Assembly (NCBI GenBank): GCA_963787105.1
Contig: CAWBBU010000012.1
Span: 116,189-180,188, forward strand
Source: an uncultured Bacillota bacterium
GTDB taxonomy: Bacteria > Sysuimicrobiota > Sysuimicrobiia > Sysuimicrobiales > Segetimicrobiaceae
Direction of reading: 5' to 3'
Length of the DNA stretch: 64,000 nucleotides
Below, one piece after another: positions 2,796 through 31,613 of the stretch; position 1 is the stretch's first letter, and every line of letters begins with the position of its first letter. The notes beneath the pieces were generated by a model that worked only from the letters and a program-made list of their open reading frames with translations, did not search any database and was not told the DNA's origin. The translations under genes were made by a program, and so were the position numbers.

Positions 2796-3938
2796 ATGTA
2801 TTTTACTGACGATTCGATCCTCCCGGAGAATATGCAGCCCCTGATTATTACGGTGGCTCCCTTCGGGCCACAGTGGCTCCCGGGCGACGCCGACATCCCG
2901 GTCACCTGGGATGAGCAGGTGCAGGTGGCGGTCGACTGTTACAACGCCGGCGCCACCATGCTGCATGTCCACGTGCGGAACCCGGCGACCGGAAAAGGGT
3001 CCATCGACTTCGATCAGTACAATTACTTCATCGGGAGACTCAAACAGGCCGTCCCGAAGATGATCCTGCAGGTCGGCGGCTCAATCTCGTTTTCGCCGAA
3101 GACCGCCGAGGCGAAAGCGAAGTGGCTCGACTACGACACGCGCCATATGCTCACCGAACTCGATCCGAAGCCCGAGTATGTCACCGTGGCGATCGGCACG
3201 ACGCAGTGGGACATCATGTCGTTGATGAGCAAAGACGACGTCAAGGGGACGCATCTCGACGATCCGATGGTGCAGGCCGCGTGGGCCGGGATGATGGTGG
3301 ACGCGGCTCCGGCCTTTTATCTCGAGCACCTCAAGCGGCTCCGCAAGCACGGGATTCAGCCCTACTTCGTGCCGGCCCACGTGCACCAGATTGAGATTAT
3401 CGAACGGCTGATGCGGGCCGGCGTCTACATGGGCCCGATGAATACGGCGATCGCCGGATATGGCGGCGGCACGATCGGCCGCAACCCGTTCGACTGGATG
3501 GAGGCGCTCCGTCGCATGCCGCAAGGCGCGATCGTCACCTTTTGGTCGAGTATGCGCGGATTGATCTCGCTGTCGGCCATGGCGCTCGTCCTCGGGCAGC
3601 ACGTACGGGTCGGCAACGAGGACAACCTGTGGGGGGCCAACCGCCAGCGCCTGACGTCGGTGCAGCAGGTCGAGGGCGTGGTGCGGATCTGCGAACAGTT
3701 CGGCCGCAAGGTGGCGACGGCCGAGGAGGCGCGCAAGATCATGAAGGTCGGTGTCTGGTACGACACCGTGGAAGAGACCCTGCGGAATCTCGGTCTGCCG
3801 CCGAACCGGAAGGGCGAGGATCTCGGCTTCCTAGTCTGGGAGACAGATGGGAAGAAAACGATCACGTTGAACGCCAGCGACTCGCACCCCATCGCCTACT
3901 GCATGGTGCCGCCCGAATCGGTGGATAAGGTGCGGTGA
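2796..3938 (+). CDS. BKACE / 3-keto-5-aminohexanoate cleavage family protein (DUF849)
   Basis: Motifs PLIITVAP, AGATMLHVHVR (Zn-binding HxH) and HVRVGNEDNL. Confidence 0.9.
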   Translation: MYFTDDSILPENMQPLIITVAPFGPQWLPGDADIPVTWDEQVQVAVDCYNAGATMLHVHVRNPATGKGSIDFDQYNYFIGRLKQAVPKMILQVGGSISFSPKTAEAKAKWLDYDTRHMLTELDPKPEYVTVAIGTTQWDIMSLMSKDDVKGTHLDDPMVQAAWAGMMVDAAPAFYLEHLKRLRKHGIQPYFVPAHVHQIEIIERLMRAGVYMGPMNTAIAGYGGGTIGRNPFDWMEALRRMPQGAIVTFWSSMRGLISLSAMALVLGQHVRVGNEDNLWGANRQRLTSVQQVEGVVRICEQFGRKVATAEEARKIMKVGVWYDTVEETLRNLGLPPNRKGEDLGFLVWETDGKKTITLNASDSHPIAYCMVPPESVDKVR

Positions 3939-4102
3939 CGCGCACACCGGATGTCCGCGGGTCCCGCCGCTGCCTCGCGGCGGGACCCGTGAATCTGCGC
4001 GTGACCAGGAGGCACGACCACCTCGGACGGCACTGTAGGCGGTAGGACGATCGTGGCACAAGCGCATACTCGGCGCGAGTCGAACGTCGAAGGAGGTGAT
4101 CG

Positions 4103-7521: not shown

Positions 7522-8575
7522 GCGACGCAGCCATGGCCCACGCGGGCCGGCGGCCGCTCACGCCCGCATGGTCCGTTCGGGAGGCTCTCGTCGTCCCGAA
7601 CAGCCGCCGTTCGGCGGCGTTGAGGAGATGTTCGAGGTTCGCGCCGTCGCCGGGCCAGGTGGCGGTGCCCCAGGTCATGCCGACCGGGGCGAGACTCCCG
7701 TCCTCGGTCTCGAGTTCCAAACGGCGGAGCCCGAGCGAGGCGAGCGTTTTTTGGGCTTCGAGCGCCGAGGCGCCGGTGAGCAGCACGAGAAATCCGTTGC
7801 CGCCGTACCGGATCGCGAGGTCCGCCGGCCGGATCTCCGCGGCGAGGATTTCCGCCACCCGCAGCGGCACGCGGTTCGCGCCGCCTTCGAACAGCGCGGC
7901 GTCGTCCCCGTCGGTATCCATGACCGCGATGGTAAAGGTCCGGTGCGTCCGGGTCCCCTCCGCGATCTCGGCCTCCACACGATCGGCAAACGCCCGGAGG
8001 TGGGCGACCTCGATCGTGCTGACGTGTTGCGCGAGCCCCGTCAGAGGGTCGGCCTCGGACACGTGGCGCAGCTGCCGCTGGAGGTGGTCCGCGACTTCGA
8101 GCGCGCCGGCGAGGTACCGGCCGACGGCAGTCAGGAGCGCCACGTCGGCCTCCCGGAGCATGTTCGGGCGCGCCCGGCCCACGGTGAGCACACCGATCGT
8201 CTGGCCGCGGACCTTGAGCGGGACGTAGAGCGCGCAGCGCACCCCGGTGCGTCCCGCGCCATCACCGGCATCGATCTCACCGCGCGAGACGAGGATCGTG
8301 CGGCCGGAGCGGAGGACGGTTTCCCACGGACCGCGGTCGGCCGGGATCGAGGCGCCGTCGAGGTTGGCGAGCAGTCCTGAGGCGGCCCGCACGACCAGGA
8401 CGTCGTCCTGCGCGCCCTCCAGCATGGCGGCCGCGCAGGACTCATACCCAAGCTCGTTCCGAAGCGTCCGGAGTACCGCGTGGAGATAATCCGTCAGACT
8501 GAGCGCGTCGGCAGACTCCGCGGCCAGGCACTCGAGAAACGTCGCGAGTCTTGTGAGTCGGGTCTCAGGCGGCAT
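7522..8575 (-). CDS. GAF domain + degenerate GGDEF domain protein
   Basis: GAF motif ALYVPLKVRGQTIGVL. Motifs DPLTGL, IRPADLAIRYGGNGF (GGDEF replaced by GGNGF) and LLNAAERRLF. The raw ORF continues to 7286 in low-complexity sequence. Confidence 0.8.
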
Positions 8576-12984: not shown

Positions 12985-14309
12985 TGCACGGCCGGCGGCT
13001 CGGCCTCGCGATCGTCGCGGCCTCGGCACTCGTGCTGGTGGCCGCGGGGGCGGACCGGGCCGCTCCGGCGCCGAACGTCCCGGTGTCCGCGGCGACGATG
13101 CTGACGCTCGCGCTCGAGGCGCCGGGCCTCATCGATTACGAAGGCACCAAGGTCGTGACCATGCCGCGCCAGGGCCGCACCGAAACGATCACCGCCGTCG
13201 AATCGCACAAGCGGCCGGATATGATGCGCCTCGAGTATCTGTCGCCGGGCGACGTCGCGGGACGTCTGATCGTGGACGACGGCCGCGCGTCGTGGCATTA
13301 CGAGCCGAGCCACAACCTAGTGGTCGAAGGACCGACGATGGAGGCCGGCCTGTTCAACGGCGGCTTGGCGCAGCTGCGCCGCAACTATCGGGTGACCGCG
13401 CTCGGCACGGATGAGGTGATCGGACGCCCGGCGTATCTCGTGCTGCTCGACCCGAACACCCCGGGCGTGAGCCGCGAGCTGTGGGTCGATCAGGCGACCG
13501 GGACCGTGCTGCGCACCGAGGAGCGCGACGCGTCGCGCGGGATCGTGCTCACGACCTACTTCTCGCGCATCAGCTTCAGCCTCAATCTGCCGGCCGCATA
13601 CTTCCAGTTTCGGGCGCCGGCGGGCGCGCGCGTGTTTCCGATGTTCACGGTCTCCGGCGAGGCGGCCGTCTCCGATCCGCTGAGCCACCGGGCCGGCGTC
13701 AACGCGCTCGTGCCGCCCGTGCTGCCGGACGGCTATGTGTTCACCGGCGCCGCGGTCAGCCGGTTCGGCGCCTTGACGTCGGTCTATCTCCGATACAGCG
13801 ACGGCGAGAATTTGTTCTCGCTGTTCGAGGCTCCCGCCGGGTCGATCGGCCCGACCTCCGGGCAGACGATCCAGGTCGGGGCCGCGAGCGGACGTCTGGT
13901 GGACCTCGGCTACCTTCGGGTGCTGACCTGGGAGCAGGGCGGGCTGCACCTGACCGCGGTTGGGACGATGCCCGCGGACACGCTGGTCGCCATCGCGGGC
14001 CATCTCGTCGGCGATCAGGAATCGGCGCTCGTCCAATCGGTGGCGCAGACGGCCGCGGTGGATCCCGCGACCGTGCGCGCGCTGCGGCAGGAGGGCCTGA
14101 CGTTTCCCGAGATCGTGCGCGCGGTGATGCTCTCGCGCGCCGTCGGGACGGACGTGACGACGGCCGTCCGGTACCTCACGGGCGGCATCGCCGGCACCGA
14201 GTTGGCCGGCAAGCTGGATCTCACCCAGGCCGTGTGGAAGCAGCGTGTCGCCGACGCGCTCGACCGCGCCGGCACGGTAGGACCGCATCTGACCGCACCG
14301 AACCCCTAA
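12984..14309 (+). CDS. MucB/RseB-like (LolA-fold) exported regulator with extended C-terminus
   Basis: Signal peptide; MRLEYLSP..LIVDDG; VIGRPAYLVLLDP; ELWVDQATG. Follows the anti-sigma gene. Confidence 0.8.
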   Translation: MHGRRLGLAIVAASALVLVAAGADRAAPAPNVPVSAATMLTLALEAPGLIDYEGTKVVTMPRQGRTETITAVESHKRPDMMRLEYLSPGDVAGRLIVDDGRASWHYEPSHNLVVEGPTMEAGLFNGGLAQLRRNYRVTALGTDEVIGRPAYLVLLDPNTPGVSRELWVDQATGTVLRTEERDASRGIVLTTYFSRISFSLNLPAAYFQFRAPAGARVFPMFTVSGEAAVSDPLSHRAGVNALVPPVLPDGYVFTGAAVSRFGALTSVYLRYSDGENLFSLFEAPAGSIGPTSGQTIQVGAASGRLVDLGYLRVLTWEQGGLHLTAVGTMPADTLVAIAGHLVGDQESALVQSVAQTAAVDPATVRALRQEGLTFPEIVRAVMLSRAVGTDVTTAVRYLTGGIAGTELAGKLDLTQAVWKQRVADALDRAGTVGPHLTAPNP

Positions 14310-28484: not shown

Positions 28485-29078
28485 ATGACAGCGCGGACTT
28501 GGGTGGCGAGGGCCGCCGGGGCGGTACTGCTGGTGTGCATCGTCTCGCTCGGAGCATCGGCGCAGACGGTGTCGGGTCCGCCGCCTGGCTTTCCGGGTCA
28601 TCCCGCGAGCCCGCCACCGTTGATCGTGCCAGGCCGGAGTATCGGGAATTGGAACCTCAACAGCACCATCCAAGATTTTATCGGCGCGTTTCAAGCCGAA
28701 TTTCCGCTGAACCTCAGCCAGCCGTCGCCGACGTTTCAAAAGAGCCTCTGGTATCACGAGTGGCACGATCCGAATCCCGACCTCATCGCGCTGACGCCTC
28801 CCGCGTCGATGACGCTCGTCGCGCTCGGCACCTTCGATAAGGCCTACCGGACGCCAGAGATGATCGGCGTCGGTTCCACCGCCCAGCAGATCAATGCGGC
28901 GTATAACGCGCCGCAGATTACGCTGCGGCCCGGTGTCGGCCCCGAGACCCTGATCTATAACGATCTCGGCATCGCGTTCGACCTGACCTACGACGCGATG
29001 GCCAAGGGCTACAGTGTCGTCGAACGGGTGTACGTGTTTCGCGTAGGTCAAGCCGCATCGGTATGGGTGGTGCCATGA
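28485..29078 (+). CDS. Exported hypothetical protein (IVPGRSIG..YRTPEMIGVGS family)
   Basis: Signal peptide. Shares motifs with the 26964 and 60485 proteins. Confidence 0.75.
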   Translation: MTARTWVARAAGAVLLVCIVSLGASAQTVSGPPPGFPGHPASPPPLIVPGRSIGNWNLNSTIQDFIGAFQAEFPLNLSQPSPTFQKSLWYHEWHDPNPDLIALTPPASMTLVALGTFDKAYRTPEMIGVGSTAQQINAAYNAPQITLRPGVGPETLIYNDLGIAFDLTYDAMAKGYSVVERVYVFRVGQAASVWVVP

Positions 29079-29109
29079 ACGGGAGCGGTGAAGCGCGCGG
29101 CCCCACGCC

Positions 29110-29139
29110 TTGACAAACATGGGGGGGCTGTGATTAACT
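29110..29139 (+). promoter_or_regulatory. Putative sigma70 promoter (TTGACA -35) for the riboswitch-pilT transcript
   Basis: Consensus TTGACA at 29110 with a weak -10 (TGATTAACT). Confidence 0.5.
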
Positions 29140-29160
29140 GCTCGTAACAGAATAGTTCCT

Positions 29161-29271
29161 ACGAATCCGTAGGGGCAAACCCGGAGAGATCCGGGGACGC
29201 AAAGCCACGGGACAGGTCGGGCACGCCGCAGGTGGGCGGGCTCGGCAAGTCAGCCGGGTTGTCGGATCCGT
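29161..29271 (+). ncRNA. GEMM-I / c-di-GMP-I class riboswitch aptamer (G20, U92 variant)
   Basis: GGCAAAC-CCGGA GAGA TCCGG-GGACGCAAAGCCACGGG...CAGCCGGGTTGTCGG. P1 is ACGAATCCG/CGGATCCGT, with a GNRA loop on P2. Confidence 0.92.
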
Positions 29272-29277
29272 GATCGG

Positions 29278-29316
29278 GTCCCTCCCGTCTCGTGTACCGC
29301 GCGGAGGGGCTTTTTT
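29278..29316 (+). terminator. Intrinsic terminator (riboswitch expression platform)
   Basis: GTCCCTCC..GGAGGGGC stem followed by TTTTTT, between the aptamer and pilT. Confidence 0.8.
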
Positions 29317-29424
29317 ATCTCTCCGGAAGACGCGGGCGTCACGCGCGGCGGGTGAAGGCTTGCGGGTCGACATACCTCCGGGCGGAACGCTCGAGACCGA
29401 ACTGTACTAGGGGTGCGAGAGGCA

Positions 29425-30510
29425 ATGGATATCACCGAACTGCTGATCCTCACGAAGGAACGCGACGCCTCCGACCTCCACCTTGCGGTGGGCTCGCCGC
29501 CGATGCTGCGCGTCAACGGGCGGCTGCAGCGGGTGGACGGCACCGAGGCGCTGACGCCCGCCGAAACGCACCGCATGCTGTACGACATCTTGACCGACGA
29601 TCAGAAGGCCAGGTTTGAGGAGCGCCACGATCTCGACCTGTCCCTCGAGCTGCAAGACGTCGCCCGCTTCCGCGTCAACGTCTACAACGATCGGCTGGGC
29701 GAGGCGGCGGCGTTCCGGCTCATCCCGTCGAAGCTTCGGAGCCTCGAGGACCTTGGGATGCCGCCGGCCCTGCGGCAGATGGCGGGGAAGGACCGCGGCC
29801 TCCTGCTCGTCACGGGCCCGACCGGCTCGGGGAAGTCCACCACGCTGGCCGCGATGGTCGATCTCATCAACACGACGCGTACCGACCACATCATCACGCT
29901 GGAAGATCCCATCGAGTTCGTGCACGGGCACAAGCGATGCATCATCAACCAGCGTGAGATCGGGCCCCACTGCCGTTCGTTCGAAGCCGGGCTTGTCAAC
30001 GCGCTGCGCGAGGATCCCGACGTGATCCTCGTCGGCGAAATGCGGGACCTTGAGACGATTCAGATGACGCTGACCGCGGCGGAGACCGGTCACTTGGTGC
30101 TCGCGACGCTGCACACGAACAGCGCGGCCCAGACGGTCAACCGCATCATCGACGTGTTCCCGACGCACCAGCAGAACCAGATTCGGGTCCAGTTGAGCGA
30201 GGTGCTGCTCGGCGTGCTGGCGCAGTCGCTGGTGGCGCGCCTCGACGACCGCGGCCGCGTCGCGGCGGTCGAGATGATGATCTGCAACCCCGCGATCCGC
30301 AACCTGATCCGCGAGAGCAAAACGTTCCAGATCACCAACGTGATCGACACCGGCGTGCGCGAGGGCATGGTCAGCCTGGACCACTCGATCAAGGACCTGG
30401 TGCGGCGCGGCCTGATCGATCCCGAGTACGGCATGGAGCGGGCGAACGACAAGGACGCGTTCCAGCCCACCCCGACGGGTCAGATCCAGTTGGGGGGGCA
30501 GCGTCGTTGA
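29425..30510 (+). CDS. pilT: Type IV pilus retraction ATPase PilT
   Basis: ASDLHL, GPTGSGKST, ALREDPD, AETGH, AIRNLIRE. Confidence 0.96.
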   Translation: MDITELLILTKERDASDLHLAVGSPPMLRVNGRLQRVDGTEALTPAETHRMLYDILTDDQKARFEERHDLDLSLELQDVARFRVNVYNDRLGEAAAFRLIPSKLRSLEDLGMPPALRQMAGKDRGLLLVTGPTGSGKSTTLAAMVDLINTTRTDHIITLEDPIEFVHGHKRCIINQREIGPHCRSFEAGLVNALREDPDVILVGEMRDLETIQMTLTAAETGHLVLATLHTNSAAQTVNRIIDVFPTHQQNQIRVQLSEVLLGVLAQSLVARLDDRGRVAAVEMMICNPAIRNLIRESKTFQITNVIDTGVREGMVSLDHSIKDLVRRGLIDPEYGMERANDKDAFQPTPTGQIQLGGQRR

Positions 30511-31613
30511 GCACTTCCGGCTCCGAGTACGGGCTCGGCGATCTCCTGCGGGCGATGCAGGAGTGCGACGCCTCAGACATCTACGTCAAGGTCGGGACCA
30601 AGCCGTTGTTCCGGATCGCGAACGAAGCGCAGCCGTCCGAGTTTGCCGCACCGACGCGCGACGGGGTCGAGGCGATCGTCGCGCCGGTCCTCACGGATGC
30701 GCACCGCGAGGCGCTGCGGACGATCGGGCACGCGGACCTCGCCTACTCTCAATCCGATCTCGGGCGGTTTCGCATCAACGTGTACCAGCAGCGCGGGACG
30801 ACGGCGCTCGTCGTCCGGCGGGTGCGGTCGCAGATCCCCTCCTTCGACAAACTGAATCTGCCGCCGGCGATCGGGGAATTCGCGTTGGCGCCCCGCGGGC
30901 TCGTCCTGGTGACCGGACCGGCGGCGGCCGGCAAATCGACGACGCTCGCCGCGATGGTCGACTACCGGAATCGCAACCGCCCCGGGCACATCATCACGAT
31001 CGAGGATCCGATTGAATTCCTGCACACCGATCACATGAGCGCGGTCAGCCAGCGCGAGGTCGGCACCGACGCCGAGTCGTTCGCGGCCGCGCTGCGGGGC
31101 GCGCCGCGGCAGGCGCCCGACGTGCTGGTGATCGGCGAGATGCGTGATTCGGTGAGTGCCGCGGCCGCGGTGTACTTCGCGGAAACTGGACACCTCCTGC
31201 TCAGCACGCTGCACGCGGTCACCGCGAGTCAAGCGCTCGACCGTGTGCTGCACATGCTCCCCGGGGAAGGGGAGTCGGACGTCCAGTCGCAGCGGCTCGC
31301 GACCATCCTCGTCGGCATCGTGTCGCAGCGCCTGGTGACCCGCGCCGACGGGACCGGCGTCGTGCCGGCGGTCGAGGTGTTGCGCGCGACCCCGCGGGTG
31401 CGCGAGCTGATCCGGCGCGGTGAGCTGCTGCAGCTGCGCCAGACCATGACCGAGGCGCACGACACCGGAATGCAGACGTTTGACGATGCGCTGTTTGCAC
31501 TCTACCAGCGCGGGACGATCACGGCGGAGACGTGTTTAGAGGCAGCGGAAAGCCCGAGCGACGTGCGCATGCGGATGCGCGCATTTTCGCCGGTAGGGCG
31601 GTCGGCGAGCTAA
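30507..31613 (+). CDS. pilU: PilT/PilU-family ATPase (PilU-like)
   Basis: SDIYVKVG, GPAAAGKST, RQAPDVLVIGEMRD, GMQTFDDAL. Lacks AIRNLIRE. Confidence 0.85.
   Translation: MSTSGSEYGLGDLLRAMQECDASDIYVKVGTKPLFRIANEAQPSEFAAPTRDGVEAIVAPVLTDAHREALRTIGHADLAYSQSDLGRFRINVYQQRGTTALVVRRVRSQIPSFDKLNLPPAIGEFALAPRGLVLVTGPAAAGKSTTLAAMVDYRNRNRPGHIITIEDPIEFLHTDHMSAVSQREVGTDAESFAAALRGAPRQAPDVLVIGEMRDSVSAAAAVYFAETGHLLLSTLHAVTASQALDRVLHMLPGEGESDVQSQRLATILVGIVSQRLVTRADGTGVVPAVEVLRATPRVRELIRRGELLQLRQTMTEAHDTGMQTFDDALFALYQRGTITAETCLEAAESPSDVRMRMRAFSPVGRSAS

Follow-up and report, generated by a model that had tools for sequence, protein, structure and literature searches.

The stretch of DNA analysed here, called the window throughout, comprises 64,000 nucleotides of one contig from an uncultured Bacillota bacterium of the GTDB phylum Sysuimicrobiota, whose assembly (G000) amounts to 2.75 Mb in 27 contigs and is 65% complete. 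Its subject is the leader of two adjacent T2SSE ATPase genes, the first encoding the type IV pilus retraction ATPase PilT and the second a PilU-like protein. The Atlas clusters nearest to the product of the first gene are named PilT, and adjacent paired PilT-like genes are present in the relatives too. The leader is preceded by an alanyl-tRNA synthetase gene and two ORFs with no match in Pfam, and the PilU-like gene is followed on the same strand by a sigma-70 family gene. The leader itself carries an aptamer of the GEMM-I family, preceded by a promoter-like region and followed by the elements of a putative expression platform (Table 1). The genome compared within the genus is that of a second species of the same genus, g1 (G006, 96% complete).

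Table 1. Features of the pilT leader and the genes behind it, in window coordinates; base numbers of the pocket follow Vc2
Feature	Position	Strand	Basis or remark
Promoter-like region (inferred)	29110..29139	+	TTGACA 29110-29115; conserved GATTAACT box 29132-29139
5' sequestor hairpin, GUUCCUACG-AAUC-CGUAGGGGC	29155..29176	+	unconstrained MFE fold
GEMM-I / c-di-GMP-I aptamer	29164..29266	+	RF01051; pair counts in 12 orthologs
P1	29165-29169 with 29263-29267	+	G29169-C29263 is the closing pair
P2, GAGA loop	29180-29195	+	
P3, long distal extension	29203-29260	+	
G20, pocket base reading the alpha purine	29174	+	cmscan alignment; role from PMC6140456 (accessible part)
A47, intercalating adenine, first A after GACGC	29201	+	cmscan alignment
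U92, pocket base, C in standard aptamers	29262	+	cmscan alignment; ortholog alignment
Anti-terminator hairpin, GGAUCCG-UGAU-CGGGUCC, 7 bp	29264..29281	+	-10.3 kcal/mol folded alone
Intrinsic terminator, stem 29277-29288 with 29299-29311, then U6 tract	29277..29316	+	-18.4 kcal/mol alone
pilT, type IV pilus retraction ATPase, predicted first regulated gene	29425..30510	+	PF00437 T2SSE, E 1.3e-50
Second T2SSE ATPase, PilU-like	30507..31613	+	PF00437, E 8.9e-35; 4-nt overlap with the pilT stop

Aptamer anatomy and expression platform

A reading of the letters alone (the sequence-only reading) had proposed a GEMM-I riboswitch with the pocket bases G20 and U92 and had suggested a search with the Rfam models. 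In this search (cmscan), RF01051 (c-di-GMP-I, GEMM-I) was matched over its full length, model positions 1-87, with 59.3 bits against a gathering score of 35 (E 4.6e-9), and this was the sole Rfam match within the 64-kb window. The consensus 3' end, ...GcUgCCgaa, was aligned to ...GUUGUCGGA in the window, and the only base there that does not match is T29262, which stands for the first C of 'CC'; this base is position 92 in the Vc2 numbering as used in the accessible part of PMC6140456. The alignment confirmed both pocket bases, and together with the covariation among orthologs it also bore out the pair proposed to close P1. G21-C22 (29175-29176) is paired to G29199-C29200, and the loop of P2 is of the GNRA type, GAGA and not GAAA. 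The earlier statement that P3 is long and devoid of the standard receptor was likewise correct, as the receptor letters CUAAgg and cuAuGac of the consensus are replaced by C--AGG and GCAAGUC and a 28-nt insertion is present. A receptor-less P3 is common to all pilT-leader orthologs, whether they carry C92 or U92, and J1/2 (UAGGG), 1 nt shorter than in the model, is also the same in C92 and U92 orthologs. The remaining conserved pocket and tertiary positions all agree with the RF01051 model.

The class of the aptamer was examined against its nearest alternatives. The score above the cut-off, the three-way junction with covariation, G20 and A47 all place the element in RF01051. C92 is missing; it is typical of this family, not obligatory, and U92 sequences pass the family threshold. 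The c-di-GMP-I-UAU model (RF03168) gave 55.2 bits, below its cut-off of 65.9, and has U at position 20 where the window has G; the c-di-GMP-I-GGC model (RF03167) gave 54.7 bits, below its cut-off of 59, and position 47 of the window is A, not G. The base A20 that marks GEMM-Ib is replaced by G29174. Judged by its sequence, the element is a genuine GEMM-I riboswitch in front of pilT/pilU.

In the promoter-like region, TTGACA and TTAACT are kept in G006 and the neighbouring bases differ. The orthologs of genus g5 also have a GATTAACT or GCTTAACT box upstream. This box, about 25 nt ahead of the aptamer and conserved in both g1 and g5, may be a lineage-specific -10-like promoter element outside the sigma-70 consensus. 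A consensus promoter and terminator scan of 28900-29600 returned no site, and the terminator was missed because its 10-nt loop exceeds the 8-nt maximum of the scan.

Two alternative structures of the leader were obtained by energy calculation. The unconstrained fold of 29143-29317 (MFE -83.8 kcal/mol) contained the sequestor hairpin, P2, P3 and the anti-terminator, without the full terminator. With P1 enforced, the same segment folded at -73.6 kcal/mol into a structure with the complete terminator and the U6 tract, in which P1 extended to about 9-10 pairs (29160-29169 with 29263-29272, one mismatch); the full terminator formed only under this constraint. In competition with P1, the sequestor hairpin hides the 5' strand of that helix together with G19-C22. 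It is identical in G006 and was not seen upstream of the aptamers of other genera, which makes it specific to g1. The anti-terminator, which shares bases with the 3' strand of P1 as well as with the 5' arm of the terminator, belongs to the ligand-free MFE structure, is gone once P1 is enforced, and is identical in G006, whereas of the terminator only the stem is kept there and the loop differs. A GC-rich hairpin with a U-tract follows the aptamer in 12 of 12 orthologs. According to these models, P1, the anti-terminator and the terminator would be laid out as a transcriptional OFF switch. In the ligand-free fold, the U-tract is still preceded by a residual hairpin (about -14 kcal/mol); the anti-terminator may therefore not fully block termination, and the ON/OFF amplitude is uncertain.

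Two further observations concern the leader. A perfect 10-nt complement between 29181-29190 (P2 5' arm and loop) and 29319-29328 (after the U-tract) came up when a longer segment was folded; it is not conserved in G006 and is probably due to chance. A contig from a soil RNA library (run X15, record 9) spans 29081-29281, from the promoter region to the anti-terminator hairpin, and then runs on into some 30 A-rich letters that do not match the window. A tailed product of decay or termination would explain it, as would an artefact, and it was not taken as evidence of transcription or of a 3' end because DNA carry-over is possible.

Origin and maintenance of U92

Leaders of the GEMM-I type also precede pilT orthologs of genera g3, g4, g5 (six species) and g6 and of family f7. 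When 12 pilT leaders were aligned, 88% of the cells were paired, and seven pairs showed changes on both sides, a number that was reached in none of 500 shuffles. The G21-C46 and C22-G45 pairs were invariant, and in P1 both sides had changed in three of the five pairs, while the closing G-C (columns 12 and 107) persisted in 10 of the 12 sequences, both U92 sequences included. The covariation of P1 fixes the register, and the column of position 92 is thus directly comparable across the orthologs. This column (106) contains T in two sequences, those of the g1 species, and C in the other ten. The leader of G011, from the sister genus g6, differs from the core of the window only in C89, C92 and a short P3 tip. 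As read from this alignment, U92 is the derived state and arose from C92.

The placement of T29262 at position 92 depends on this register, and a shift of one base would give a different pocket: U29262 would be an extra junction base, C29263 would pair with the ligand guanine, P1 would be one pair shorter and c-di-GMP would be recognised in a nearly standard way. An enforced P1 of about 9-10 pairs could afford the loss of its top pair, and a J1/2 that is 1 nt shorter than the model indicates some plasticity of the junction. The short J1/2 is also found in C92 orthologs, however, and hence does not compensate for U92; the closing G-C pair is retained in the leaders noted above, including those that carry U92; and no second change was counted beside C92U in the comparison with G011 (C89 is also listed as differing). 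A shifted register is accordingly regarded as very improbable.

The sequence-only reading had allowed for a base-calling error at T29262 and had proposed a check in reads and in orthologous pilT leaders. The aptamer core of G006, whose PilT is 96% identical to that of the window, is identical and has T at position 92, while its P3 extension and terminator loop differ from the window. Contigs assembled from four sequencing runs of four studies, three of soil DNA (X1, X2 and X3) and one of a soil RNA library (X15), each run with less than 0.3 of the sampled words, span 29262 and agree with the window at that base; their differences lie at 29223, 29229, 29275, 29295, 29297 and 29329 and in an insertion after 29233. 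The agreement of G006 and of the contigs from four independent runs ruled out the base-calling error. The proposed check thus came out in favour of T in the reads and within the genus, and in favour of C in the 10 of 12 leaders that belong to other genera. U92 is real and is fixed in two species of g1, G000 and G006.

Selection on the aptamer was assessed from the same pair of species. Between G000 and G006, 60 of 60 positions at 29155-29214 and 25 of 25 at 29248-29272, or 85/85 in the core, were identical, whereas identity was 272/358 (76.0%) at the third codon positions of pilT and 190/318 (59.7%) in the upstream flank. By our own arithmetic, the chance of 85 unchanged sites at 76% neutral identity is about 1e-10. 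The unchanged core, set against the diverged third positions and flank, argues that the aptamer, U92 included, is under purifying selection, and the differences within the P3 extension preserve pairing through wobble/Watson-Crick exchanges. These data bear on the possibility that the sensor has decayed, with an aptamer that binds no dinucleotide and a leader that acts as a constitutive attenuator or is merely structural. Such decay would fit the replacement of a ligand-contacting base, the lineage-specific hairpin in competition with P1, and the score of 59.3 bits, below the 65-81 bits of most aptamers in the phylum. It is hardly credible in view of a core without a single difference where silent sites have diverged by 24%, of the pairing kept in P3, and of the agreement of every other conserved pocket and tertiary position with the model.

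Within the phylum, which is represented by 94 species genomes, all of one order, U92 is rare. The pocket pattern ending in GGGYTRTC (U92) was found at two sites in two of the 94 genomes, namely the two pilT leaders of g1, and the same pattern ending in GGGYTRCC (C92) at 233 sites in 88 of the 94 (some phylum totals, i.e., GEMM-I counts, C92 sites and pilT orthologs, include G034 and G078, which are flagged as unpublished, and no conclusion rests on them). A looser U92 pattern gave eight matches in the phylum against five for the reversed-pattern control, and a true aptamer 3' end was present only in the two g1 leaders. GEMM-I aptamers were detected in 60 of 61 phylum genomes searched, with up to 14 copies per genome. 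Many of them form tandem pairs about 100-170 nt apart, such as those of G053 (C109:13222-13301 and 13388-13467) and G044 (C5:3756-3835 and 3869-3948).

Ligand recognition and proposed regulation

In Vc2 numbering, G20 recognises the Hoogsteen edge of one ligand guanine and the second guanine is Watson-Crick paired to C92, as described in the accessible parts of PMC6140456 and PMC5888326. It was reported, in the portion available of bioRxiv 10.1101/617340, that the C92U mutation of Vc2 in Vibrio cholerae decreased the controlled RNA 30-fold and that expression of a diguanylate cyclase led to partial recovery, which fits a retained but reduced affinity for c-di-GMP. For the G20A/C92U double mutant, the accessible text of PMC9049102 gives about 4.9 uM for c-di-GMP, compared with 0.011 nM for the wild type; it also describes G20 and C92 as less conserved than A47 and cites PDB entries for C92 mutants. 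Synthases of the Hypr GGDEF type have Ser in place of the Asp of canonical cyclases, according to the part of PMC6456294 at hand.

The enzymes encoded by the two g1 genomes were compared with these precedents; the sequence-only reading had proposed a search for Hypr-type GGDEF or CD-NTase genes. Active GGDEF domains number two in G000 and six in G006, and all eight have the canonical Asp at the selectivity position, with no Ser-type Hypr domain among them; one more, degenerate GGDEF domain is present in each genome. No match to SMODS (PF18144) was found in G000 or G006, and none to the DncV-like family PF21654, the latter being a weak result because no control genome matched either. A host cGAMP synthase, as expected for GEMM-Ib, was thus not found in G000 (65% complete) or G006 (96% complete) by these searches. 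From the active GGDEF domains, the g1 lineage is predicted to make c-di-GMP. The other riboswitches of G006 have standard G/A/C pockets.

Several other loci of these genomes are related to cyclic dinucleotides. The sole other GEMM-I of the G000 assembly lies outside the window (L001:1502-1578; contig C12:11501-11577); its pocket is A20/A47/C92, a cGAMP-associated signature, its best model is RF03167 with 61.5 bits, and it is followed by a terminator-like hairpin with a U-tract and an ORF with PATR autotransporter-passenger repeats. A similar A20 aptamer is present in G006 (L199). Within the window, an ORF of about 470 aa encodes a degenerate GGDEF domain with the motif RYGGNGF at about 7598-7879 on the minus strand (L190; G000:C12:123786-124067), and its product, which is conserved in G006 (L197), is therefore probably a non-catalytic receptor or scaffold. 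Another, large protein (L188; G000:C6:263153-266614) has HD-GYP-like motifs (HDIGK ... GYP) together with a GAF-like region and an active GGDEF domain. It may therefore be a bifunctional enzyme of c-di-GMP turnover, and it too is conserved in G006 (L192).

The standard G-C pair and an A-U pair are isosteric, and the pocket G20/A47/U92 could on this ground have an altered or dual specificity, in which G20 reads the guanine of cGAMP (alpha) and U92 forms a Watson-Crick pair with its adenine (beta), so that cGAMP, or cGAMP together with c-di-GMP, would be sensed by a route other than A20. Such a specificity would be compatible with the fixation of U92 under purifying selection, with the A20-type aptamer that both G000 and G006 carry in addition, and with the incompleteness of G000 (65%). 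The Asp of all eight active GGDEF domains and the absence of SMODS and DncV-like matches in G000 and G006 (the DncV-like control being silent) speak against it, and the nearest orthologs have plain C92 aptamers in the same leader. The genome of an independent U92-bearing member of the Solirubrobacterales (G094) gave the same picture, with Asp in five of five GGDEF domains and no SMODS match. Altered or dual specificity in vivo is therefore considered unlikely; as adenine could be as good a partner for U92 as guanine, or a better one, promiscuity toward 3'3'-cGAMP in vitro is plausible.

The distribution of the pocket outside the phylum was surveyed with one genome per species over at least 123 stretches. 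Aptamers with G20/A47/U92 were found at no fewer than 27 loci with a strict filter on P2/P3 pairing and at no fewer than 34 with a slightly looser one. Twenty of the strict loci were put to the clan models, and all 20 passed a gathering threshold of the c-di-GMP-I clan, the best model being RF01051 for 12, RF03167 for five and RF03168 for three (L070, L105 and L148). Based on record titles, the hosts among the matches listed include Solirubrobacterales, Geobacteraceae, Nitrospirota, Acidimicrobiaceae, Gemmatimonadaceae, Sphingobium, Rhizobiaceae, Thermoanaerobaculia, Desulfosporosinus and Bacillota. The Solirubrobacterales set comprises 8-9 species among the matches listed, with near-identical flanks, ahead of type IV pilin genes. 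Individual U92 aptamers of this order (L065, L092, L093, L154, L155 and L163) lie directly upstream of pilin genes whose products begin with an N-terminal KGFTLIELLVV..., and L092 and L093 are on one contig in tandem-like proximity. The rarity of U92 that the sequence-only reading had implied therefore holds within the phylum, at two sites against 233, and not beyond it: by pattern and model matches, U92 is locally rare and yet recurrent in many phyla.

Stable U92 lineages elsewhere, such as that of the Solirubrobacterales and those of several Geobacteraceae among the matches listed, and the location of two U92 lineages before type IV pilus genes (pilT here, pilins in the Solirubrobacterales) are points in favour of a changed specificity. 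A more general form of this idea, that G20/A47/U92 is a distinct natural specificity class for 3'3'-cGAMP, or for cGAMP and c-di-GMP, which has arisen repeatedly, also before type IV pilus genes, is quite improbable. If true, it would imply an unrecognised source of cGAMP in these soil lineages. In the literature searched as full text, no paper joining riboswitch, cGAMP and U92 was found, and the papers listed for GEMM riboswitches and pilT include, by their listing, none on the present case.

The sequence-only reading had left altered specificity and weakened binding side by side; the latter is now favoured, and sensing of cGAMP, alone or with c-di-GMP, is unsupported by the gene content. Weakened binding is favoured because the aptamer, of the c-di-GMP type, is unchanged apart from the single derived base U92, because no known 3'3'-cGAMP synthase was found in G000 or G006, and because Vc2 C92U is still responsive to c-di-GMP when a cyclase is overexpressed (bioRxiv 10.1101/617340, accessible part). 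With a probability of roughly 70%, the element responds to c-di-GMP at a raised threshold and acts as a transcriptional OFF switch for pilT-pilU, its C92U change lowering the affinity without abolishing it. Without ligand, the upstream hairpin (29155-29176) would hold the P1 5' strand and G19-C22, and the P1 3' strand would join 29275-29281 in the anti-terminator, so that the terminator stays incomplete and pilT/pilU is transcribed. On binding of c-di-GMP, P1 would close, with G20 reading one guanine, A47 stacked between the bases, and U92 pairing with the other guanine as a wobble and not as a Watson-Crick pair. The closed P1 would preclude the anti-terminator, the full terminator (29277-29311 with U6) would form, and transcription would stop. 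The weaker pocket and the lineage-specific 5' sequestor may jointly raise the level of c-di-GMP that is needed; pilus retraction would then be turned off only at high c-di-GMP, and the C92 riboswitches of the same genus would respond earlier.

Comparison with known systems

A natural and selectively maintained C92U whose nearest orthologs have C92 provides a before-and-after pair, G000/G006 versus G011, that suits measurement of the effect of one pocket base on ligand affinity or selectivity and on the threshold at which a pilus-retraction operon responds. If the tuning proposed above is true, one genome staggers its responses to c-di-GMP by point changes in aptamers; if cGAMP is sensed instead, the pocket represents a second route to the recognition of cGAMP.

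The aptamer shares with the RF01051 prototype, Vc2 of Vibrio cholerae, the three-helix fold, G20, A47, the G21-C46 and C22-G45 pairs, the GNRA type of the P2 loop and an expression platform based on P1. It differs in U92 for C, in the long P3 without the letters of the GAAA receptor, in the J1/2 that is 1 nt shorter, and in the extra 5' hairpin that competes with P1. The pocket substitution is the same single change as in the laboratory mutant Vc2 C92U, but in the window it is natural, fixed in two species and located in a pilT leader. The commonest natural variants at positions 20 and 92 reportedly still pair with the ligand. RF03168 (UAU), whose model consensus ends in ...GuUGUC, has A47 and U92 in common with the window and differs by U20 where the window has G20. 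The Geobacter GEMM-Ib riboswitches (Gs1761 and Gm0970 among them) have the same fold and also a single pocket change, and some GEMM-Ib control pilus or surface genes. In the accessible part of PMC6140456, however, they are A20 with C92, whereas the window has G20 with U92, and Geobacter possesses Hypr GGDEF cGAMP synthases (PMC6456294 and PMC8835794, as far as their available text goes), of which none was found in G000 or G006. For the present, the element ranks as an ordinary riboswitch whose variant is of a known type, recurrent in nature and already studied as a mutant.
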